Source: a virus (taxonomy: Duplodnaviria > Caudoviricetes). From it: a stretch of DNA of 35,715 bases. Positions within the stretch are counted from its first letter, which is position 1; each line of letters opens with the position of its first letter. Made by a program: the position numbers and the translations under genes. The DNA lies in the IMG/VR virus record IMGVR_UViG_3300037423_000638, positions 1 through 35,715 of that record; one strand, given 5' to 3'. Of this stretch, positions 3,851 to 17,049 are shown in pieces. The notes under the pieces were generated by a model. It worked only from the letters and a program-made list of their open reading frames with translations, was not told the origin of the DNA and did no database searches.

Positions 3851-4171
3851 TCAAGCTGCCAGCTTCAGCGCCACGACAACCCAAGTGCCCGTGAAGGCGC
3901 CCACGCTGCCCGGTAGTAGCAGCCAGCGGTCCTGGGTATACCCGATCACCGCCAGCGCACCGAGGACGAACAGGGCGACGGCCCACAGCGAAGCGGCGAC
4001 GGGACTGCCGAATTTCACCGAAGCGACGTACAGCGCCCACGCGCCATCCGTGAGCGTCATCGCAACGAACGCCGCGATCCAGCGCCAGACATGCCACGCA
4101 AGACGCGACTGCTTGCAGCACTGGAAGGGGTAGTAGCACGGCGCGGCACCCCAGATGCGGCAGCGCTTCAT
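3851..4171 (-). CDS. small multi-pass membrane protein
   Basis: About 3 hydrophobic segments; ATGA overlap with the phosphoesterase stop. Confidence 0.65.
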   Translation of the reverse strand: MKRCRIWGAAPCYYPFQCCKQSRLAWHVWRWIAAFVAMTLTDGAWALYVASVKFGSPVAASLWAVALFVLGALAVIGYTQDRWLLLPGSVGAFTGTWVVVALKLAA

Positions 4172-5400
4172 GTCGCGAACTCCAGCCAGCGCGTGTTGAC
4201 CGCACGCCGGCGATCCTCAAGGTGCACCGGCATCGAGAACGTGATGCCTCGCTCGCTGTGTGTCAGCCATAGGGCTTGCTGCGGCGGCTCAAAGCCGAAG
4301 TTGTTGGACGCCGCGTATTCGTCGTAGCCCTTCAGGCTGCCGTTCACGATGAATCGCTGCAGCATGATCAGCTGGTGCCAATGGCCCATCAGCAGGGTGT
4401 CGAACCCCAGATCCAGTTGCGCATCGCGGCTGCGCTTCTTGTGGTCGCCGCGGGCGATCGGCCCAAGTGCGCCGATCATGCCGTCCCCGCCTCGAAACTG
4501 GTCGCCGTGCGTGAGGCAGTACCGATGCCCGAAGACCGTCCAGTGCGCGTCGGAGCCGTCGGGGATGTAGAACTGGATGCGCCTGTCGCCCTCGAAGTGG
4601 CGCGCCAGCACCTGGTAGAGCAGCCAATCGAAATTAGTGTAGTTGCGCCCCTTGGCCCGAGGCTTCTTCGTGTTGCGGCCGTGGTTGCCAGTGACGCAGG
4701 GAACGAAGACGCGCCCGAACGCGTCGGCCAGCATGCCGATCGCGCGCACCAAGCAGTCGCGCAGGTCCAGCCAGGCCACCATTACCGGGACGTCATTCGT
4801 CTCGCTCAACTCCTCGTGGATGTCGCCGCTGAGCATGTCGCCGCCGAGAGCAAGCACGATGCCCGGGTAGTTCGGCGCCACCATGTGATGCATGCACAGG
4901 TCGATCGTACGCTCGACGGCCGTGCGCAGCCGGCGCTGCGCGATGGCGATGTCGTACTCGTTGACGCCATTGATCTGCGCCGGAAAAACCTTCTCACCCC
5001 AGTGCAGATCGGACAGCAGCAGCGTCGGGACATGCAGGCCGCCTTTGGTCACGCGGGCGGGGTTGAGCCACAGCGGTGGGTTGGCCGCAGCTGCAGCCAT
5101 CTTCAGGATCTGGCGCTTGACGTACTCGTCGTCGAGCGAAGCCTTTTCGGCGGCGCAGAGTCTGGCACGCAGCTCGCGCACCTCGTCCAGTAGTTCCGGC
5201 GTTCCCGGCGGCGCGTTCACGACTGCGCGCCCGTCCTGAGCCACGGCGAGGGTGATGCCTTCGCGGTTTTCAAGCTTCCGTCGACGCGCCTGCACGCCGC
5301 GGACATCGACGCCAAGGTGGCGCGCGACAGCCGAGGGGCTGCCGCCGAATTGGGCCCAGGTCTGCTTGAGCTGTTCGTCCGTATATTGGGCTTTGGGCAT
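4168..5400 (-). CDS. calcineurin-like metallophosphoesterase with N-terminal HTH
   Basis: Motifs SDLH, LGGD, GNHG, HGD, GHWH; N-terminal GGSPSAVARHLGVDVRGVQARRRKL HTH-like segment. Confidence 0.88.
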   Translation of the reverse strand: MPKAQYTDEQLKQTWAQFGGSPSAVARHLGVDVRGVQARRRKLENREGITLAVAQDGRAVVNAPPGTPELLDEVRELRARLCAAEKASLDDEYVKRQILKMAAAAANPPLWLNPARVTKGGLHVPTLLLSDLHWGEKVFPAQINGVNEYDIAIAQRRLRTAVERTIDLCMHHMVAPNYPGIVLALGGDMLSGDIHEELSETNDVPVMVAWLDLRDCLVRAIGMLADAFGRVFVPCVTGNHGRNTKKPRAKGRNYTNFDWLLYQVLARHFEGDRRIQFYIPDGSDAHWTVFGHRYCLTHGDQFRGGDGMIGALGPIARGDHKKRSRDAQLDLGFDTLLMGHWHQLIMLQRFIVNGSLKGYDEYAASNNFGFEPPQQALWLTHSERGITFSMPVHLEDRRRAVNTRWLEFAT

Positions 5401-5795: not shown

Positions 5796-5938
5796 TGGCT
5801 GCTCCCGAAAATCCAGATGCCGGCAGCGCAGACCGCGACGCCCACCGAGATGCCTTCCAGCGGGTAACCCGCCAGCCATCCCACGGCCCAGCAGGCCAAG
5901 ACAACGCCCGCACAGACGCGGGCCAGAAGCGTAGGCAT
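5792..5938 (-). CDS. 48-aa two-TM membrane protein
   Basis: MPTLLARVCAGVVLACWAVGWLAG...ISVGVAVCAAGIWIFG; coupled to the next gene. Confidence 0.55.
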   Translation of the reverse strand: MPTLLARVCAGVVLACWAVGWLAGYPLEGISVGVAVCAAGIWIFGSSQ

Positions 5939-5951
5939 GACAAACCCTTCA

Positions 5952-5967
5952 GGGCCGATTTCGGCCC
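5952..5967. promoter_or_regulatory. palindrome GGGCCGA-TT-TCGGCCC in a divergent intergenic gap
   Basis: Perfect 7-bp arms between the divergent genes starting at 5938 (-) and 6009 (+). Confidence 0.4.
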
Positions 5968-6008
5968 GAGTTGTGACTTCGGTGGTGAAACTTCCTAGAA
6001 TGGGCGGC

Positions 6009-6326
6009 ATGCTGCTCAGGCTGCTGCCCCTTGTCGTGCTCGTCGCGTGCTCAGACGCCGGGCCGTCATTTCCGAAGGCAACGGCAGCCGAACGCGCAGA
6101 CGCTGCGCAATCAGCGCTTGCGAAAATCCCGCCCTTGCGCTCGTACCACTACGACCGCGGCGAGCTCCTGGTCTTCGATGTGCCCGTGCCAATCACGCGT
6201 ACGATCACCGGCACTCAGACTTGCATCCTCTGGCGGGACGCTGAACTGAAGACTGCGACGATGCAGTGTCCGGTCGACACGCCCGATCCGCCGATGCGCT
6301 CGGCGCAGGACTCCTCGCGCTTCTAG
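6009..6326 (+). CDS. lipoprotein moron (possible superinfection exclusion)
   Basis: MLLRLLPLVVLVAC lipobox. It is the only plus-strand gene in the late region. TAGAAT -10-like box at 5996-6001. Alternative start ATG 6000. Confidence 0.75.
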   Translation: MLLRLLPLVVLVACSDAGPSFPKATAAERADAAQSALAKIPPLRSYHYDRGELLVFDVPVPITRTITGTQTCILWRDAELKTATMQCPVDTPDPPMRSAQDSSRF

Positions 6327-9300
6327 CGGGCGCGCTGGCGATCCATCTCTTCGCGCTCCTCTTCATTCGCGCGGCGCTCGAACTTCTGGCGGGCTTGCTT
6401 GGACAGACCGCTTCTGGGTTCCAGTGCCTGCTGGATGGCGCGGTTGATTTCACGCGGCGTCATGCCGATTTCTTCCATGCGCTCGCGGGCCTTGTCCTCG
6501 TCGCCTCGCTTGAGGTCGTCTTTCACAAGCTGCATCGTGTAGCGGCGCGACTGCTCGAAGCGGTCCGACGTTTGCTGGTTCACCGCGGCTTCCGGGCCAC
6601 CCGGATGGCCTTGGGAGAACGTGAAGCCGGTGACGGTGCCCACGACCTTCTTTTTGTCCAATTCGGTCGCGTGGCCCTGCATCCAGTCGTAGACGCGGGT
6701 GATGTCGTCCCAAGGAAGCTGGGCCTTCATCACATGGGCGACACCTTCACCGATGCGTTTAGGGACGGACCCGTTCGGGTCTTCGATCGGCTGGCCAAGG
6801 CTGTTGTGCCCGAGCATGGATTCGCTGATCGCCTTCGGGATCGGCGCGCCCTTGTTCCAGGCCGTACCCAACGTATCGGTCACCCAGCCCACCAGATCCT
6901 CTGCAACCTTGCCGGTGGGCAGGCGCATGTACTCATGACGATCCCCGATCGAAGCGCCCATGTCGACGCGGTTCTTTTTGCCGGGCTCGTTGGCCCAGGT
7001 CGAAGACAGCTGGTAGGGATTCCAGCTCGCCAGCGCCGCCGGCCGCTCGGCGATGTTCTCGCCCATCGCCTTGGCGCGGTCGATGTAGCCCTGGACGATC
7101 TCGGCCCCGGGCTTGTCCTTCTTCAGCGAGTCCACCAAGTCTTGCACCAGCGAGGTCGCGATGATGGCGAAGCCGACGTCCAGCGCGATGACGCCCCAAG
7201 CCTTGCGGCGCTGCTCCCACACCGCGCGCTTCGCTTCATCGGCCGGCACGCGTTCGGACAGCATGGCCTTCAGGCCCGAGGGCATGCCGGCCCAGGTGTC
7301 CTTGATCGTGCCGAGATTGGTGAAGTTGAAGGATCGCGAAAACAGCAGAATGTTGGCGGCCTTGCGTGCCAGCTCGCTCTGGTTTTCCTTGGCAACGACG
7401 CCGCCGTAACGGTTGGCCAGGTGCGCGGCCATGATCTGCGAGGCCGCTTCGGAGTAGCCTTTGGCCTGATAGCGCGCCTTGGCGTCGGCGTAGATGCCCA
7501 TCTGAAGCGCGCCGATCTGCTTCCACAGCATCGTGTGGTGCAGGAACTCGCCGGCTGCGTCCATGCCCTTCTTCGCCTGCGTCCCAGCGCCGTCGTGGAT
7601 CGCGTTGCCTAGAGCTTCGATACCCAGTGTGATCCAGCTCTCGTCGGGGTTGCCCCAGCGATCACCCATAGGCTTGAAGTTCTGCGCGATGTCGGTCACG
7701 TCGATCGACTGCGAATGATTCTCGCCGATCGGCACCATCCCGGCCTCGACCGCTTCGCGCATCAGGCCGTTGTCCTTCAGCAGGCCGTGACCCTTGACGT
7801 ACAGCTGCAGGGTGAGCATCTTCACCGGCGAGGCCGGCATCGCCTTGCCCCAGATCACCATGTTGTGGATCAGCGGCGAGAACATGATCGCGCTCATTGC
7901 CTTGCTCTTCAGGAGCATGTAGCCGGTGTACCAGGACGAGTCCTGCGTTGACATGATGGCCTTGAGCGGCCCCTCGAAGTCCTTGCGGATGTACAGCGGC
8001 ACGCGGTCCATCACCACATTGCCATCGGCGTCGGTCATCGGTACCGTCTTGCCTTCGGCGTCCTTCGTGAAGCGCGGGCGATACTGCATGAAGGCCGGGT
8101 GCGCGATGGTGATGTAGCCCTCGGCGTGGCCGTCGCGCACGAGCTCCTCGCCGGTGGCTTGGCCGATCGCCTTGATCTGGTTGATCAGGCGCCGGCCCGC
8201 GATAGCGCGCTCCAGGCGGTACATCGCCAGCGGCATCGTCATGATGTCGCGCACGACCTTGGCGCCCGCGGCACCCTGCTGCTTCGCCAGTTCTGCACCA
8301 GCGGCTTCCGTCTCCTCGGCCGTGAGGTGCTTGCGGTGCTTCAGGCTCTGCGCCGTCGTCGAGATGTTGCGGCCCTCCCCGCTTGATGCGGTCTTCGGGC
8401 CCCCGGACAGCGAACGCAGCTTGCCGATGTCGCCGTCCTCGCCGATCGTCACCAGCATGCGCGGCGTCCAGAACGGCAGGCCCTCGCCTTCGACCATGCC
8501 TTCGGCTTGCGCTGCGCGCCACAGGCCTTGGCCGTACTCATGCAGGGTGTCGACGGCTTCGCGCTGCTTCTCAGTCAGGCTGGCCAAGCCAACGCCTTCG
8601 GGTCGGCTGTAGCCCTCCTCATCGCGTTCGCGGATGCGTGCGACGTTCTCCTCGTCGGCGGCTTCCCACATGCGCTGGCGCTCTTCGGCGGTGAAGTTCG
8701 CCTCCAGCAAGCGAGACAACCTGCCCCATTGAACTTGCGCCCAGCGGGTTTGGTTGGCGTATTTCTGCGCCATCGCCTGGGCCTGCTTATTGTTGGTGGC
8801 GCTCATGGGAGCCACGCCCATCATCAAGTCGTTGCGAAGGGTGGTGTAGAGATCGCTCGCAGCGTGTAGCATCTTCGCACCGGGGCCTGCGTACGGTGCG
8901 CGGACTTCTTCTGGGAGGTCAGCATCCGATTCGGCGGCGCGGGCAAACTGGGGGCGAATGCCGTTTTCATCCAGCAAGCGCTGAACTTCGTCGGGCCCGA
9001 CCTTCGGGCGACCTTGCGCATCCTTCTCGAATCGATCGCCAAAGCGGCGCCAGAATTCCGAAGTGCCTTGGAAGGTCGGGTGAATAAGCTCGCCACGGTC
9101 GTTCTCCGCAGGTCGGCGCTGGCCATCCACTTCGATGGTGCGCTGCTCGGAGCGGGGAAGCACAGACGGCTCATTCGGCGGTACAATGCCCTTGCTCTGA
9201 CCCGGTGGGTTCGTGGCCGTTCCGCTGGCTTCATCGGACGGCGCAGCAAACGGGGGCCGCTCGCCAGATGCGGCAGGAGACTGGGCCCGGTCTCCCTCCC

Positions 9301-12300
9301 AGAGCACCTTCCATGTGTTCTTTGCTTCCGTCCGCGACGGGTAGGCTGTGCGGACGGTGTAGTAGTCCCGATCTCCATCTTTCCCGAGTTGCAGCTCCAC
9401 GAACATGCGGCGCGCAGTACCTGCCGCCCCCGTCTCCAGAAGCACTAGCTGGGCCGTTTGCTCGGGTTGGTAGATCTTGTTGAAGTGCGTTGCGACTTCG
9501 TGCACGAATGCCGATGCATCCGGGAAACCAGCAGCGCGAATAGACGCGCCGTGTCGATTCTCGATATGCCGTAAGCCATAAAGGTCGTTGCCCTCTTCCA
9601 GACGAATCTTCCCGGCTTGCCGCCGCATGATGCGTCCCATGTCGGCGCTGACCTCGCCGAAATCGATGGACCCAGACGGGCTTTTGACGAATCGGCTCGC
9701 ACCCTCGCGCTCTTCGTTGGGATCGTCGCGAGAGAACGACGCTTCCTTCTTCGCGAAACCCGGCTCCGGATTTCGTCCTCGCTCCACGTACCCACGCGCG
9801 GGCAGCAGGTAGTTCGCGATGATCTCGTCGCGCGTCATCTTCAGCGAGTCGATGCCGTGCTCGCGCAGGAATGTGCGGATCGCCGCAACAGCCCGCTTGA
9901 CGATGCTCATCTCGGGCCGTGTCTGCGCCATCTCGGCCAGCACTTCTTCGGCGGCCGTGAGGCGGTCGCGCTTGTTCGCGAGGTCGAGCCCGTACTGGTC
10001 GGCCTTGCGCGTGATCTCTTTTGGCAGCGCCGCAGCAATTTCGTTCAGGATGCCGTTCAGGCGATCGCCGAAGACGCCGCGCAAGCCGAAGTGGCCAAGC
10101 GCCTCGTGGAAGAGCACGCGCTGGACATCGCCCTTTGTTTGCAGTGCATCGCCAATGAGGTAGACGCCTCCCTTCCAGTGGAAGCCCTCAATGTTGCCTA
10201 CAGCGCCCTGAGAGTTCTGCTGCTCCCACACGCGGCGCACCGGCTCGGGCGCTTCGTCCATCGAGCCGAGGACATGGATGTCCGGCTTGCGCAGCCAATC
10301 GCGCGTGAGCGTACTGACGACCCGATGGATCTGGGCGCGCTTGCCCACGGTGGGCTCAGTGTCACTGCGTCGGAACGATGGCTCTTCGGGGATGGCGGCA
10401 ATGGCGCGCTCGGCCTCGCGCACGGGCTCCAGCCGCTCGACCTTCGGCGTCTTCTGCGAAAACCCGGAAATGGTTTCCGGTTTTTCGATGCCGGGCGTCG
10501 GATGGACGGGCGGCTCAAGGCGCACAGTGGGCGTTGGCTGGGCGGCTTCGACCGCAGCGGGAATTCGCGATTCGGAAACTGCGGATTCGGCGGGCTCGCG
10601 AGTCGGCGCAAAATCTTGCACCACGCGCTCGGCATCTGTTGCACGCGAACGGCCCACCACGGCACCTTCGGCGCTGGGGACAAACGGGATTTCGTGGGCG
10701 CGCAGCAAAGCAGCAACGGCAGCAGGATCGCCCTTCACCGTGACGGTGCCCGAGTCATTGCGGCGTACCGTGATCTCGGCGGCTTTCGACTCCACCTCAC
10801 GCGCTGACAACGCTTCGAGCGGCTTGGGTTCCGGTACAGCCGCGCTCGCTGCAGGCGGAGCAACTTCGCGCGCTACTGCATCGGCAATTCGAGGTGGAAC
10901 AGACTCACCCTCTGCACCAATGGAAGCAGGTTCTGCGGCCAGTCGCTGTACGGGTTCAGCATCGCTTCGAGCTCCAGGCTCCACGCCTGCTGTGGCGTCA
11001 GCCAGCCGGCCTCCATCGGCTCTTGCAGGTTCGGCTGGAAGCGCAGTGTCTCGGCTGACATTGGGTGTCTCCAGCGGCCAGATGGCCAGCATCTGCGAAC
11101 GAATGGAGCCTTCAGGCGCGGGATTCGCTGCAGCCTTGGCCGCTTCGATGGCCTCGTCTACCGACTGCGCTTGCAGCACGCGGCCCACATCGGCAATCTT
11201 CGGGGTGTCGGCGGAAACGCCCTCGGCTTCTGCCGTCTGGACGGCTTCCGGCGTGCGCAGGTCATGCGGCGCTTCCACATGCCCCGGCATACCAGCCGCC
11301 AAGAGGCTCCCTTGCACGCCGGAGACGACCGTGTTGGCAATATCGAAGGGCTGCTGGAGATTGTCGGGATCGGCGGCGTTCTGGATGACGCGCCCCGCTT
11401 CTCCCGTGGCCGCGCCCACCGGAAATCCCGTAACCGCACGCACCGCACGCGAGCCCTGCATGGACATCGGTACGGCCCCATTGATGCCCGCCCACATCCC
11501 GGCCGTGAGCGCGGATACGGCCGCCTGGCGCGGAGAGCCGCCGGACTCCAGCACCTGGTCGGCCTTCTCGCCTGCGGCCTTCAAGATGACCGGGCGCATG
11601 GCGTCAAAGCCAGTGGATAGCGCCTTGCCGACGAACTCCATCATGCCGGGGTTCTTGGCGACAGCAGCGGGAGCCTCGGCCAATCCACCGGAGGCGATGA
11701 TCGCGGGCAGGTCTTGCAGCAGGCCGCCCACGCCGTTCGCGATCTTGGACTTGAGGTCCATCTTCTCGTCGGGCTTGAGGGCGTAGTAGTCCACTGCGTT
11801 CTGCGCCGGGTCGACGAGCTCGCGGAAGGCCGCGTCCTGCCACGAGTAGTCGGCCTTACCGCCGAACGGCTGCTTCACGGCGTTGATCACCGACTCGGCG
11901 ATGACCGGCAGGGAGCTGAAGGTGGCGGCGATGTACTTGGCCGACTTCGCGCCCGACTCGCCCCAGCCACGCCCGAAGGCCTCGGCGGCACCGACATCGC
12001 GCTTGGCACCAACCGCCGGCGGGTTGACGAAGCCGCGACCGCCTCCAGCCTCAGGCGGTGCCGGCGGCTGCGCCGTTTCCGCAAAGCCCGTGCCCATGGG
12101 ATCGCCCAACGGCTGGGGCTGGTCCGCGACAACGGGCTGCTCGGTCGTCGCGTTATCGCGCTGGTTCAGTCGATCGGTCAGGAACGGAATGATCTCGTCG
12201 GGCTTGTAGCCAGATTTGATAGCCCCGTCCGTGTCGAATCCCGCCTGCTGACCGAGAAACGACGCGATCTCCGCATCGCTGTAGCCAGCGGTGCGGGCAC

Positions 12301-12319
12301 CCTGATAGTCGAAGGGCAT
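6323..12319 (-). CDS. giant internal virion / DNA-ejection protein of the large polyvalent type (zincin peptidase and PBECR-like modules)
   Basis: 1998 aa, last gene of the ejection cluster. N-terminal GYSDAEI/GYKPDEI repeats, Gly/Ala-rich membrane-like region, RVLFHEALGHFGLR zincin motif, GKIRLEEG...YGLRHIENRH module. Confidence 0.85.
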   Translation of the reverse strand: MPFDYQGARTAGYSDAEIASFLGQQAGFDTDGAIKSGYKPDEIIPFLTDRLNQRDNATTEQPVVADQPQPLGDPMGTGFAETAQPPAPPEAGGGRGFVNPPAVGAKRDVGAAEAFGRGWGESGAKSAKYIAATFSSLPVIAESVINAVKQPFGGKADYSWQDAAFRELVDPAQNAVDYYALKPDEKMDLKSKIANGVGGLLQDLPAIIASGGLAEAPAAVAKNPGMMEFVGKALSTGFDAMRPVILKAAGEKADQVLESGGSPRQAAVSALTAGMWAGINGAVPMSMQGSRAVRAVTGFPVGAATGEAGRVIQNAADPDNLQQPFDIANTVVSGVQGSLLAAGMPGHVEAPHDLRTPEAVQTAEAEGVSADTPKIADVGRVLQAQSVDEAIEAAKAAANPAPEGSIRSQMLAIWPLETPNVSRDTALPAEPARADGGRLADATAGVEPGARSDAEPVQRLAAEPASIGAEGESVPPRIADAVAREVAPPAASAAVPEPKPLEALSAREVESKAAEITVRRNDSGTVTVKGDPAAVAALLRAHEIPFVPSAEGAVVGRSRATDAERVVQDFAPTREPAESAVSESRIPAAVEAAQPTPTVRLEPPVHPTPGIEKPETISGFSQKTPKVERLEPVREAERAIAAIPEEPSFRRSDTEPTVGKRAQIHRVVSTLTRDWLRKPDIHVLGSMDEAPEPVRRVWEQQNSQGAVGNIEGFHWKGGVYLIGDALQTKGDVQRVLFHEALGHFGLRGVFGDRLNGILNEIAAALPKEITRKADQYGLDLANKRDRLTAAEEVLAEMAQTRPEMSIVKRAVAAIRTFLREHGIDSLKMTRDEIIANYLLPARGYVERGRNPEPGFAKKEASFSRDDPNEEREGASRFVKSPSGSIDFGEVSADMGRIMRRQAGKIRLEEGNDLYGLRHIENRHGASIRAAGFPDASAFVHEVATHFNKIYQPEQTAQLVLLETGAAGTARRMFVELQLGKDGDRDYYTVRTAYPSRTEAKNTWKVLWEGDRAQSPAASGERPPFAAPSDEASGTATNPPGQSKGIVPPNEPSVLPRSEQRTIEVDGQRRPAENDRGELIHPTFQGTSEFWRRFGDRFEKDAQGRPKVGPDEVQRLLDENGIRPQFARAAESDADLPEEVRAPYAGPGAKMLHAASDLYTTLRNDLMMGVAPMSATNNKQAQAMAQKYANQTRWAQVQWGRLSRLLEANFTAEERQRMWEAADEENVARIRERDEEGYSRPEGVGLASLTEKQREAVDTLHEYGQGLWRAAQAEGMVEGEGLPFWTPRMLVTIGEDGDIGKLRSLSGGPKTASSGEGRNISTTAQSLKHRKHLTAEETEAAGAELAKQQGAAGAKVVRDIMTMPLAMYRLERAIAGRRLINQIKAIGQATGEELVRDGHAEGYITIAHPAFMQYRPRFTKDAEGKTVPMTDADGNVVMDRVPLYIRKDFEGPLKAIMSTQDSSWYTGYMLLKSKAMSAIMFSPLIHNMVIWGKAMPASPVKMLTLQLYVKGHGLLKDNGLMREAVEAGMVPIGENHSQSIDVTDIAQNFKPMGDRWGNPDESWITLGIEALGNAIHDGAGTQAKKGMDAAGEFLHHTMLWKQIGALQMGIYADAKARYQAKGYSEAASQIMAAHLANRYGGVVAKENQSELARKAANILLFSRSFNFTNLGTIKDTWAGMPSGLKAMLSERVPADEAKRAVWEQRRKAWGVIALDVGFAIIATSLVQDLVDSLKKDKPGAEIVQGYIDRAKAMGENIAERPAALASWNPYQLSSTWANEPGKKNRVDMGASIGDRHEYMRLPTGKVAEDLVGWVTDTLGTAWNKGAPIPKAISESMLGHNSLGQPIEDPNGSVPKRIGEGVAHVMKAQLPWDDITRVYDWMQGHATELDKKKVVGTVTGFTFSQGHPGGPEAAVNQQTSDRFEQSRRYTMQLVKDDLKRGDEDKARERMEEIGMTPREINRAIQQALEPRSGLSKQARQKFERRANEEEREEMDRQRAR
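10457..10487. repeat. 14-bp-arm inverted repeat inside the giant gene
   Basis: CGAAAACCCGGAAA-TGG-TTTCCGGTTTTTCG, 13/14 pairs. Confidence 0.6.
10873..11061 (-). CDS. 62-aa nested out-of-frame gene inside the giant ejection-protein gene
   Basis: GGAG-7nt-ATG. By hand count about 53/62 codons end in G/C in this frame versus about 23/62 in the host frame. Protein-like sequence. Confidence 0.65.
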   Translation of the reverse strand: MSAETLRFQPNLQEPMEAGWLTPQQAWSLELEAMLNPYSDWPQNLLPLVQRVSLFHLELPMQ

Positions 12320-12323
12320 TGGC

Positions 12324-13256
12324 TTACTTCAGGAACGAGTTCAAGGGGGGTTTCTTGGCGGGGCTGGCGGGTGCAGGTGCTGGTGAAGGCGTTGGCGTGT
12401 CTCCCTCGTCGTCGCCTTCGTCCTTGGGAACGATGTTCAGCCCCTTGAACAGATCCAGCTTGCGCTTCTTGCTCTCGGCAATCTCGCCGCGCAGTTCCTC
12501 CATCTGGGTCTTGATCGACTCGTAGGCCGGATTCGGCTGGCCGCCCTTGGTGGGATTCGTGTTTTGCAGCTGGTTGTTCAGCATGTTCAGCTGGCTCGTG
12601 GACGCGCGGATGTTCGCGTCCTCCGAGGTGATCAGCATGCGCGTCGTCGCTGAGTCGATCTTGCCGTTCAAGCGCTTTTCCTGCGCGGCCTGCAAGCGCA
12701 GTTCGTAGCCGTACTTCATTGCTTCAGTCTTGGCATCCGCGATCTGTTGCATCGTCGCGTTGCGGTCCTGCGCGCGTTGCAGCAACGAGTCCAGCTTCAT
12801 CTGGTTGATCTCGGAAGCCGATGCCAGCTTGGCCGCTTCGGTCGGACTGATGTCGCCCGTTGCAATCGCCGCCTGCGTGCGCGTGCTGGGCGCATTCATG
12901 ATCGATTGCCGGTCATTGGCCAGCGATTGATCAACGACAGCCTGCTGCTCCGGGGTCCAGGTCGACGCATCGCCCATGCCGGACATGATCACGCTTCGCT
13001 TGGCCCCAACCTGTTGGTCGGCAATGCCGCCCGCTGCGGTGGCGATACGCGAAGCCTGCGCCTCGCGTTGCTGGTTCGCGGTGTCGACCTTGAACTGCTC
13101 CAGCGCCTGCTGGCGACTGAGCTCCAGGTTCGATTGCAAGGTAGCCAATTGCGATTGGCGATCCAAGTCGAGATCGCTTTTCATCATCGCGGCCCCGGCA
13201 TCTTGCGCCGCCGCTCCAGCCCCGCCCAGAGCCCCCAGAATGATTCCAGGCATCAC
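12324..13256 (-). CDS. internal virion / ejection protein
   Basis: Gly/Ala-rich N-terminus (GIILGALGGAGAAA), Gln-rich coiled coil, position in the ejection cluster. Confidence 0.75.
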   Translation of the reverse strand: MMPGIILGALGGAGAAAQDAGAAMMKSDLDLDRQSQLATLQSNLELSRQQALEQFKVDTANQQREAQASRIATAAGGIADQQVGAKRSVIMSGMGDASTWTPEQQAVVDQSLANDRQSIMNAPSTRTQAAIATGDISPTEAAKLASASEINQMKLDSLLQRAQDRNATMQQIADAKTEAMKYGYELRLQAAQEKRLNGKIDSATTRMLITSEDANIRASTSQLNMLNNQLQNTNPTKGGQPNPAYESIKTQMEELRGEIAESKKRKLDLFKGLNIVPKDEGDDEGDTPTPSPAPAPASPAKKPPLNSFLK

Positions 13257-15081: not shown

Positions 15082-16286
15082 CAGCCCCCCGGATAGTCAT
15101 TGACCGGCACGCCCGTGAACGGATTGGTTGGCGGTGGCTGCTGGCCCGTCGAGCCGAACCCGACGTAGTTCCCGTTGGCGTCAAAGCCTGGGTAATTGGA
15201 CAGGTTCATCGCCACATCCACCCCGGCGGCTTTCGACATCGCGGAGAGCTGGTTGTTCACGTTCTGGATGATCTGGGCGATGGCTTGCGTCTTGGAGGTC
15301 GCATCCATCTTGTCGTTGTTCTGCAATTGCGAGATCGCCGCCACCGCTTGATTGAAGATCGTCGCGGCCTGCGAATTGGTCTGGATCACAAGCTGATTCT
15401 TGTTCTGCATGTCCTGCAGCGTCGTGCGGGTCTGCGCATCCAGCCCGGCGGTGTATTTCTGCGTGTCGGCGTTCAGTTGGGCGATCTGCTTTTGGGTGTC
15501 CGATTGCAGACCCGCGATCCCGAGCTGGTTGGCCAGTTGCGCCTTCTGCATGGCCATCTGGTTCTGGATGTCGGCGTTGTATCCACCCGCCTTGGCAAAC
15601 GTCGCCGCATCGGCCTGCGCAATCGGAATCGCTGCCGCAAAGGCCGCCTTGTCCGCCGCCGTGGTCGCCAGGGTCGAATTCGACAGGCCCCGCGCATTCA
15701 TCTCATCGACGGCATCGGCGCGGGCCGAAGCGATGATGGGGTTGTTGGGGTTGATGATGGACTGGATGCGCCCTTCAACCGTCTGTTCGGGTGTCACTTT
15801 CCATGCGGTGTAATTCGAGTTACCGCGCCCACCCGCGACGATGCCACTACCACCACCCGATGAAGCAGGTGCCGGCGCTGGACTCGGTGCTCCGGTAGAA
15901 GGTGCCGCTGTCGGCGCGCCGAGCCCGTCGATCCAGTTGCGCACATCCTGCTGGGTGCCGTTTTCCACGTCGACCGGCATGCCGAACGCGGTCTTTGGCG
16001 AGATCATCTGGCCATACTTCTGTTGGTAGTAGTCGTTGGCATAGACGTCATTTCCCGATGCGTTCTGCACCCTGTTGACGACACCTGCGTCATACGTTTG
16101 GCCATTGGCCGCCGTGTAGCTTCCGTCTGCGTTGATCGCGCCGGACACGATGCCGGGAGTCGCTCCGGGGCTGGGTGTGCCGACAATGGGCACCCAGCCC
16201 TTGGCCGGGTTAAGGCTGAAGCCTTGGGGGCCACCCGGTACCGCCGCTGGTGCCGCCCCCCATTTGGGGTCAACGAATCCTGTCAT
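15081..16286 (-). CDS. internal virion / ejection protein
   Basis: MNARGLSNSTLA motif followed by an Ala/Gln-rich coiled coil, typical of podophage ejection proteins. Confidence 0.7.
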   Translation of the reverse strand: MTGFVDPKWGAAPAAVPGGPQGFSLNPAKGWVPIVGTPSPGATPGIVSGAINADGSYTAANGQTYDAGVVNRVQNASGNDVYANDYYQQKYGQMISPKTAFGMPVDVENGTQQDVRNWIDGLGAPTAAPSTGAPSPAPAPASSGGGSGIVAGGRGNSNYTAWKVTPEQTVEGRIQSIINPNNPIIASARADAVDEMNARGLSNSTLATTAADKAAFAAAIPIAQADAATFAKAGGYNADIQNQMAMQKAQLANQLGIAGLQSDTQKQIAQLNADTQKYTAGLDAQTRTTLQDMQNKNQLVIQTNSQAATIFNQAVAAISQLQNNDKMDATSKTQAIAQIIQNVNNQLSAMSKAAGVDVAMNLSNYPGFDANGNYVGFGSTGQQPPPTNPFTGVPVNDYPGG

Positions 16287-16468
16287 GTCTGCTCCTTCTC
16301 ATCGGTCAGTGGCTTGGCCAGCAGTGCTGCGGTCTGCGCGCCTTCCATGCGTTCCAGCGTCGCCAGCGCCCATTCGAGTTCGGCCCGGTCGCGCCGGTCG
16401 AAGGCGTTGCGCACCACCTGCGCCAGCCGCCTTACGGTCCATCCAGCGGGTCGTACTGGCGCTTCCAT
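16283..16468 (-). CDS. small hypothetical protein (61 aa)
   Basis: Fills the gap between Rz and the next gene; its stop overlaps the next ATG. Confidence 0.4.
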   Translation of the reverse strand: MEAPVRPAGWTVRRLAQVVRNAFDRRDRAELEWALATLERMEGAQTAALLAKPLTDEKEQT

Positions 16469-17049
16469 AGCAGCAGCGTGTCGCGACAGATCGAGTACGC
16501 ATCGTTCACCTCCTGCGCTTCGTTCAGCAGGCGGGTGATGAGGGCCGTCAACGGTGCGGAGACGAAGCCGCCTGCGCTGCGCCCTGGCTGTAGTCCTTGA
16601 GTGCCCCCGGAAAGTAGCCCGGTGCCTTGGGCTCGGTCGCCAGCACCGCTGCGGGGATCGTCGGCAGCTTCGCTCGGGGCGCCTCCACCACTGCTCCCAC
16701 ATTGGCCGGCGGGGTCGAACAGGCGGCCACCGTGGCGAGCCACATCGTCAGCCAGAGCCAGTGCAGCCGCGCGGCTGTCCATCCTGCGTTTTTCATAGTC
16801 GGCTTCCTTGTCCGCTTGCATCTGGGCCACCTGACGCTCCAGCGCCAGTGCCCGCTTGGTCGCTGCGGCCAGCTTCTGCGCCGCTTCCAGTTGCAGCTCG
16901 TCGATGGCAAGCTGCATGCGGTTGTGTTCGGCCTCGCGCGCCTCGTTGGCGCACACCTGGCCGTAGCCGAAGAAGGCTGCCGTCAGCGCTAGCAGCATCG
17001 CCAGCAGGATGACCCAGCGCGTGGGTGACATCCATTCGAGCAGGCCCAT
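16432..17049 (-). CDS. Rz: i-spanin (Rz-like)
   Basis: N-terminal TM (WVILLAMLLALTAAFFGYG), long coiled coil, downstream of the endolysin, contains a nested lipoprotein. Confidence 0.85.
   Translation of the reverse strand: MGLLEWMSPTRWVILLAMLLALTAAFFGYGQVCANEAREAEHNRMQLAIDELQLEAAQKLAAATKRALALERQVAQMQADKEADYEKRRMDSRAAALALADDVARHGGRLFDPAGQCGSSGGGAPSEAADDPRSGAGDRAQGTGLLSGGTQGLQPGRSAGGFVSAPLTALITRLLNEAQEVNDAYSICRDTLLLWKRQYDPLDGP
16548..16796 (-). CDS. Rz1: o-spanin lipoprotein (Rz1-like), nested in Rz
   Basis: MKNAGWTAARLHWLWLTMWLATVAAC lipobox followed by a Pro-rich segment; embedded in another frame of Rz. Confidence 0.8.
   Translation of the reverse strand: MKNAGWTAARLHWLWLTMWLATVAACSTPPANVGAVVEAPRAKLPTIPAAVLATEPKAPGYFPGALKDYSQGAAQAASSPHR

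Follow-up and report, generated by a model that had tools for sequence, protein, structure and literature searches.

On the minus strand of the window, i.e., the entire 35,715-nt stretch of viral DNA analyzed here, a 62-codon gene is embedded in the giant gene of a 1998-residue polyvalent-type protein. It is a same-strand gene in a shifted frame, with its own start signal and under purifying selection. We regard it as almost certainly a real gene, and it belongs to a conserved, unnamed family of hidden genes. For its acidic 62-residue product, we infer a role as an escort under which the new giant protein would stay intact until packaging, a reading to which we give a probability of about 0.4.

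Genomic context and coding signal of the nested gene

The window record is linear and estimated to be 59% complete; its minus strand carries terminase, portal, capsid, tail and lysis genes (Table 1). The giant is large and multidomain, bears an HEXXXH MPTase motif and lies among virion genes, and thus fits the polyvalent type. Its product is presumably packaged in the virion and ejected, judging from this gene context and from gp47 of phage phi24B, which was found in virions and proposed to be an ejection protein (bioRxiv 10.64898/2026.04.10.717836). By sequence comparison, the C-terminal domain of the giant shares 80–81% identity with its closest relatives and 33–42% with ten distant loci. 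A peptidase downstream of the nested gene, postulated in the preliminary description, is borne out by an HExxxH motif at giant residue 738, with H, E, G and a downstream E invariant in the alignment (A6). The PBECR-like label given there to residues 895–1015 stays unconfirmed: a Pfam scan of the giant, which would cover named LPD, PBECR and ART domains, returned 0 families, and a comparison of the giant with GenBank phages gave no match.

Three further reading frames in the window are of note in their own right. An ORF at 16283–16702 (minus strand) overlaps the 3' part of an Rz-like gene at 16432–17049 (minus strand). A 129-aa ORF at 5937–6326 (plus strand) converges on the end of the giant gene; its hydrophobic leader and Cys look like a lipoprotein signal, and genes of this type are candidates for superinfection exclusion. 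A 410-aa protein matching PHROG exonuclease families is encoded at 4168–5400 (minus strand), immediately following the virion block.

The minus strand reads ctGGAGacaccca and then ATG, at which the nested ORF opens (position 11061); the ORF lies wholly within the 1998-aa ORF 12319–6323, over giant residues 420–482. Re-derivation from the window reproduced the 62-residue translation, the GGAG and the ATG identically, and the earlier count of G/C-ending codons (53/62 in the nested frame against about 23/62 in the giant frame) was refined to 53/62 against 24/64. In the rest of the giant, GC3 is 0.80, and the lowest 64-codon window outside the overlap has 37/64. The giant-frame value of 24/64 corresponds to a binomial p of 1e-13; synonymous resampling of the giant's own residues predicts 50/64, and 0/20,000 resamples were as low as 24. 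The +1 frame was open in 74% of the synonymous resamples, and open with an ATG in 17%; in the window, it is open for 32 codons upstream of the nested ATG. Because an open +1 frame alone is common by chance, the claim of a gene is carried by the codon flip together with conservation in relatives.

RNA structure around the nested start showed nothing unusual (z = -0.1), and no sigma-70-type promoter was found in 10600–12700 by a scan limited to this one promoter type. As no promoter-like site was found, the nested gene is likely read off the late transcript of the giant. Standard gene callers had been expected to miss the gene, and the exact peptide of the window is indeed absent from a collection of 15 billion proteins.

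Table 1. Positions of features in the window (upper rows) and of further nested +1 ORFs in other loci (lower rows)
Feature	Position	Strand	Remarks
Giant 1998-aa polyvalent-type gene	6323..12319	minus	last gene of the virion/tail block
N-terminal Gly/Ala-rich region (residues 1 to ~350)	11270..12319	minus	hydrophobic stretch near residue 130
Shine-Dalgarno-like GGAG	11069..11072	minus	7-nt spacer to ATG
Nested gene, 62 codons ATG..TAG	10873..11061	minus	+1 frame of the giant gene
Final CAG codon (Gln) plus TAG stop	10873..10878	minus	3' end of the nested gene
Zincin-like metallopeptidase (MPTase-like) domain	9770..10327	minus	HEALGH at residues 738-743 and downstream invariant Glu
Variable payload segment (residues 895-1015)	9275..9637	minus	missing from the closest relatives
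Conserved C-terminal domain (residues 1130-1998)	6326..8932	minus	sequence comparison with relatives
TnpV-like family	L210:6551-6874; L213:7207-7512		LASTA; Atu_ph08
TnpV-like family	L231 giant residue 728; L233 giant residue 1707		VvAW1; POI1126
Basic ORF, ~52-57 aa	L046:11105-11266; L199:9005-9166; L117:4019-4174; L094:4646-4816; L011:8567-8827
Similar nested +1 ORF pair	L113:8639-9010; L228:3966-4328
Similar nested +1 ORF pair	L227:8001-8153; L229:6081-6248
Similar nested +1 ORF pair	L082:6205-6624; L201:10037-10471
Similar nested +1 ORF pair	L099:7335-7520; L201:7334-7519

A family of nested genes in the +1 frame of giant genes

A search with the window peptide identified five viral loci at 73–76% identity, a three-sequence alignment added one further locus (45% identity), and an exhaustive protein search yielded 15 true small relatives, P0002 being dropped as a repeat artefact. 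A word-indexed protein search with the single window peptide gave no match, tblastn of the window peptide, the L007 peptide and P0016 against GenBank phages returned chance matches only, and a first round of family profile expansion gained no new member. Matches from the ESM Atlas were rejected as weak, unnamed look-alikes. Degenerate DNA patterns were run over viral, genome and metagenome contigs, and a profile filter (E < 1e-5, at least 55 aa) applied to 206 loci kept 37 distinct intact peptides; the remaining loci were duplicates or chance matches, the majority of the genome and metagenome pattern matches being due to chance. The small protein of the window matched no Pfam or PHROG family, and no published description of the nested family was found in the literature covered, which excluded subscription journals and bioRxiv supplements.

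All 37 members occupy the +1 frame of a long ORF that is a giant polyvalent-protein gene, and they are located at giant residue ~370–860 wherever the start of the giant is in view. The start signal first seen in the window is conserved across the family: the start codon, ATG or TTG at a fixed position, is ATG in 36/37 members, and a Shine-Dalgarno-like 4-mer or better lies 4–13 nt upstream in 35/37, a raw count without a shuffled control. With three copies from cultured phages (BA3, FGH and VvAW1), 40/40 copies with known context are nested in a giant gene in phase +1, and no free-standing copy occurs among these 40, a count to which P0003–P0019 do not belong; a genomic context search for P0017 returned no locus. 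One family copy per genome was present in 5/5 genomes searched. One carrier (L053) is a prophage-like region in the cultured strain Quisquiliibacterium transsilvanicum DSM 29781. In one further copy, outside the 37 intact members (L046, 9968–10165), a premature stop follows codon 31 within an intact 3,277-codon giant, which reflects either a real loss or an assembly error.

The copy in Thalassomonas phage BA3 was reached through protein structure. Among viral proteins, A8HNW3 (110 aa) gave the best structural match to the small protein, with a probability of 0.87 and E 0.55; we take it to be a protein of this phage, as it matches BA3_0004 (YP_001552273.1) in length (110 aa) and sequence similarity. 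BA3_0004 is annotated in GenBank inside the giant BA3_0002 as a hypothetical protein without function and, like the window gene, lies in phase +1 within the giant. A distant family member forms its final 64 residues, at giant residue 470; the start as annotated appears to lie 46 codons too far upstream. Used as a query, the BA3 copy retrieved copies in Vibrio phage FGH (71%) and VvAW1, both in phase +1 and unannotated. The family profile matched the VvAW1 copy at E 7.6e-7 and the BA3 copy at E 9e-4.

Codon usage and substitutions point to the same frame throughout the family. Nested GC3 is 0.68–0.92 versus 0.30–0.49 in the giant frame, and it is the higher of the two in 37/37 members. Across the 12 closest pairs, differences at nested codon positions 1, 2 and 3 numbered 42, 44 and 107, and pN/pS was 0.28 in the nested versus 1.26 in the giant frame; the next 23 pairs gave 0.40 versus 1.19, although in both sets the pairs share ancestry and are not independent. 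The preliminary description had held that the nested frame is the selected one and that the giant reads through it as a linker, and this frame-by-frame comparison of homologues upholds it. Purifying selection acts on the nested frame, and the residues of the giant there form a drifting linker; giant residues 420–482 are a by-product of the nested code. In contigs of one relative from three public runs, the 3' end of the nested gene is matched with 3 differences in 61–73 nt, the sequence is replaced from the base after the nested stop, and 20/156 nt differ further on.

The carrier giants are mosaic. Named polyvalent domains of the LPD, PBECR or ART kind were detected in 11/17 other carrier giants scanned, with LPD1, 5, 37, 38 and 39, InPase, ART-PolyVal, SNF2, PBECR1 and MuF_C in changing combinations. 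Complete carriers fall into 5 C-terminal and several N-terminal clusters with differing payloads, and the domains flanking the nested gene vary. No single N-terminal domain is common to all carriers; the nested gene always follows the Gly/Ala-rich N-terminal region and precedes the payload. An HExxH-type motif is present in 19/21 complete carrier giants, one of the two motif-less carriers having the peptidase in the next ORF and the other lying at a contig end, and the peptidase domain is recognized by profile in 14/21. As the motif also occurs in 13/16 giants without the family, its co-occurrence with the nested gene is non-discriminating. In some giants, the nested gene lies up to ~2,900 residues from the peptidase domain. 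In L122, the giant is seemingly split into two ORFs, of which the first holds the nested gene and the second the peptidase.

Many related giants lack the gene. The C-terminal domain of the giant led to 15 loci; the gene is present in the 5 close ones and gave no significant match in the 10 distant ones, two of which (L220 and L221) have +1 ORFs of weak similarity in the equivalent position. Seven giants of cultured phages, one of them cut at the 5' end, likewise gave no family match. Carrier loci were collected with the nested peptide and therefore cannot show how frequently the gene is lost.

The codon test also finds other recurrent +1 ORFs in giants, the giant of the window holding one candidate only; all 60 candidates of the scan are in phase +1, which is partly built into the codon score and is not counted as evidence. 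A second nested +1 family of ~100–110 aa, with its own SD and ATG, is found inside DarB-like giants. Its resemblance to TnpV is weak (Pfam E 0.003, which does not reach the curated cut-off), and 21 GenBank records match it at E < 1e-15, mostly under genes annotated as DarB-like or methylase giants. A basic nested +1 ORF of ~52–57 aa, without a Pfam or PHROG family, recurs in giants that carry the main family, and another basic one of 44–53 aa recurs in L122 (4762–4893), L158 (347–505), L082 and L220. L053 holds a second, divergent nested ORF (8908–9126, giant residue 800) that is weakly similar to the main family and ends in Gln. Two records show oddities of annotation. In Sinorhizobium phage PBC5 (L232, AF448724), a frame change near 8305–8350, possibly a sequencing error, splits the giant into orf33 and orf23 and fuses a nested ORF to orf33, which places this ORF at the end of phrog_938. 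In Pseudomonas phage Itty13 (L234), three GenBank antisense ORFs, likely a mis-annotation, lie opposite a 4,112-codon ORF with a peptidase domain.

The small protein and its possible role

From the family alignment, the product is predicted to fold into a three-helix bundle (mean pLDDT 88), with helices in the window protein at residues 10–17, 23–35 and 43–56 and a free tail ending in Gln. The protein is acidic, with a net charge of -1 to -9 in 37/37 members. Q13, G19, A26, W27 and L29 are nearly fixed, which was partly required by the search pattern; the 15 proteins of the exhaustive search show the same near-fixed residues as the pattern-found members. The conserved face comprises F8, L12-Q13, P15, G19, L21, A26-W27, L29, W41, L54 and H56. 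The C-terminal residue is Q, H or N in 30/37 members and in 18/20 clusters at 60% identity; such an end occurs in 10.5% of 1,576 control +1 segments. The frame of the giant does not impose it, since the fixed A falls on a third codon position of that frame. Conservation of the last residue, on a tail whose length varies, suggests a pocket that may bind the free C-terminus. A PDB structure search gave no match at E 0.001 (best Z 4.0), which does not in itself make the fold novel, and PDB sequence matches were rejected as designed armadillo repeats.

We hypothesize that ribosomes would start at the internal GGAG on the late transcript of the giant, so that the small protein would be made where and when the giant is made. 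Its conserved face and free Q/H tail could then dock on the newly made giant, and the tail would probably occupy a pocket of the protease type. For this pocket, the giant's own metallopeptidase, the one domain common to nearly all carriers, would be the best candidate; a plugged pocket might delay self-cleavage until after packaging or ejection. This reading of an escort and protease plug was chosen because the peptidase is present in nearly all carriers and because the MPTase of polyvalent proteins has been proposed to cut them into units, some polyvalent proteins being packaged or transferred uncut (Iyer et al. 2017, PMC5512222). When the small protein was co-folded with zinc and the peptidase domain of the giant, the score was 0.05, which speaks neither for nor against binding. 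The lack of an N-terminal domain common to all carriers makes a specific chaperone awkward. In a bolder form, which we consider conceivable although doubtful, the nested protein would be an out-of-frame guard, a pro-peptide in trans that holds the giant's peptidase shut until ejection; the linkers would then be the shadows of +1 genes arranged in two-layer operons, and other nested families would guard other modules, e.g., the TnpV-like ORF before a methylase-helicase block.

The small protein could instead have a job unrelated to the giant, for example in taking over the host, in timing lysis or in excluding related phages, its gene being merely parked in a tolerant linker. The free exchange of the domains around the nested gene and the many giants without it are in keeping with this, and the several unrelated +1 ORF families that recur in other linkers suggest that linkers are general parking places. 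We nevertheless consider mere parking unlikely, given the fixed place of the gene after the N-terminal region and the lack of a free-standing copy among the 40 with context; the lack of a sigma-70-type promoter, within the one promoter type scanned, weakens a separate expression in the lysogen.

A role at the host Lon protease, as a decoy, regulator or short-lived substrate that docks by its C-terminus and spares unfolded ejection proteins, appears rather improbable. Lon prefers a C-terminal His (PMC11986505), and LarA, a small regulator, acts on Lon via a His-ending tail (PMC10665427); His ends 14/52 aligned members and all three cultured-phage copies. Gln, however, is the commonest end (27/52, the window protein included). 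In work with the Lon of one species and one reporter, which may not hold for other hosts, the half-life was 402 min with a Gln end, in the middle range of 18 variants, and 152 min with a His end (PMC11986505). The degron x-L/I-L/I/V-H is matched by 0/52 members, and a decoy has no evident need for nesting in the giant gene, yet 40/40 copies are nested.

It is very unlikely that the nested frame is reached by a +1 ribosomal frameshift yielding a shortened giant with the nested domain at its end. The constant +1 phase, the 32 open codons before the ATG in the window and a PHROG profile ending in a different nested ORF speak for such a mechanism. The members, however, start with an ATG or TTG whose position is fixed and which follows a spaced Shine-Dalgarno motif, and the +1 frame is closed 1–7 codons before the start in 6/37 of them, which makes frameshifting unlikely. 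The PHROG fusion concerns another family and was traced to the single frame change in the record of PBC5, which lies ~50 nt ahead of an intact start of that family.

An immunity protein for the nuclease-like payload segment, as first suggested from the upstream position of the nested gene, would suit the small, acidic nature of its product but is hardly credible, since the segment is present in only 1/57 giants examined; L001 and L005 lack it and keep the nested gene, which in L001 is 76% identical. Equally hard to sustain is the view that no protein is made and that the pattern stems from an RNA or DNA element or from the amino-acid bias of the linker: the +1 frame is indeed frequently open by chance at this linker, but the observed GC3 is far from that predicted by the linker residues, RNA structure at the start is ordinary, the nested frame has its excess of changes at third positions with pN/pS < 0.5, and the family alignment predicts a confident fold. 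Translational coupling, in which the nested stop would serve a restart in the giant frame, was discarded, since TAG, the stop of 17/37 members, gives no start codon in that frame.

Comparison with known systems and implications

In phage lambda, Rz1 lies in the +1 frame of Rz. As in the window pair, a small same-strand gene with its own start is wholly contained in a larger one, and the products of Rz and Rz1 cooperate. Unlike in Rz1/Rz, the outer gene here encodes a virion protein of 2,000–4,000 residues that is unconstrained in the overlap. The 62-aa product also differs from Rz1 in having no Cys and no hydrophobic leader, hence no Rz1-type lipoprotein signal or lipobox, and the Rz-like gene of the window lies elsewhere. 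A small partner of a giant protein is known in phage P1, where Ulx, the product of a separate gene, aids the packaging of DarB. DarB and Ulx resemble our case as a giant packaged and ejected protein with a small partner and an ordered incorporation; Ulx differs in being a virion component (PMC12810830, PMC9024508). No sequence or fold link between Ulx and the nested family was found. Embedded spanin genes of the Rz1-in-Rz type are exemplified by orf49 inside orf48 of CSP3 (PMC10269572).

The carriers share LPD1/5/37/38/39, InPase, ART-PolyVal, SNF2, PBECR1 and MPTase-type domains with the described polyvalent proteins and, like these, lie among virion genes (Iyer et al. 2017, PMC5512222); the giant of the window differs from that set in having no Pfam match. 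No passage on inner genes was found in the main part of that study (PMC5512222). LarA resembles the nested family in its small size and in the conserved last residue that its unstructured tail bears (PMC10665427), whereas the family, unlike LarA and the x-L/I-L/I/V-H degron, ends mostly in Gln.

Embedded genes as such are already known, as in the case of Rz1 in Rz, and BA3_0004 has stood in GenBank without comment. Anti-defence and host take-over domains are carried by giant ejected proteins, and a giant gene of this kind was found to be needed for infection in PTXU04 (PMC11879866). With a conserved partner within the same gene, the survival of the giants, unfolded and uncut, until packaging becomes testable. 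The family also implies that annotations miss whole families of small proteins, and that deleting or swapping 'linkers' in giant genes removes hidden genes.
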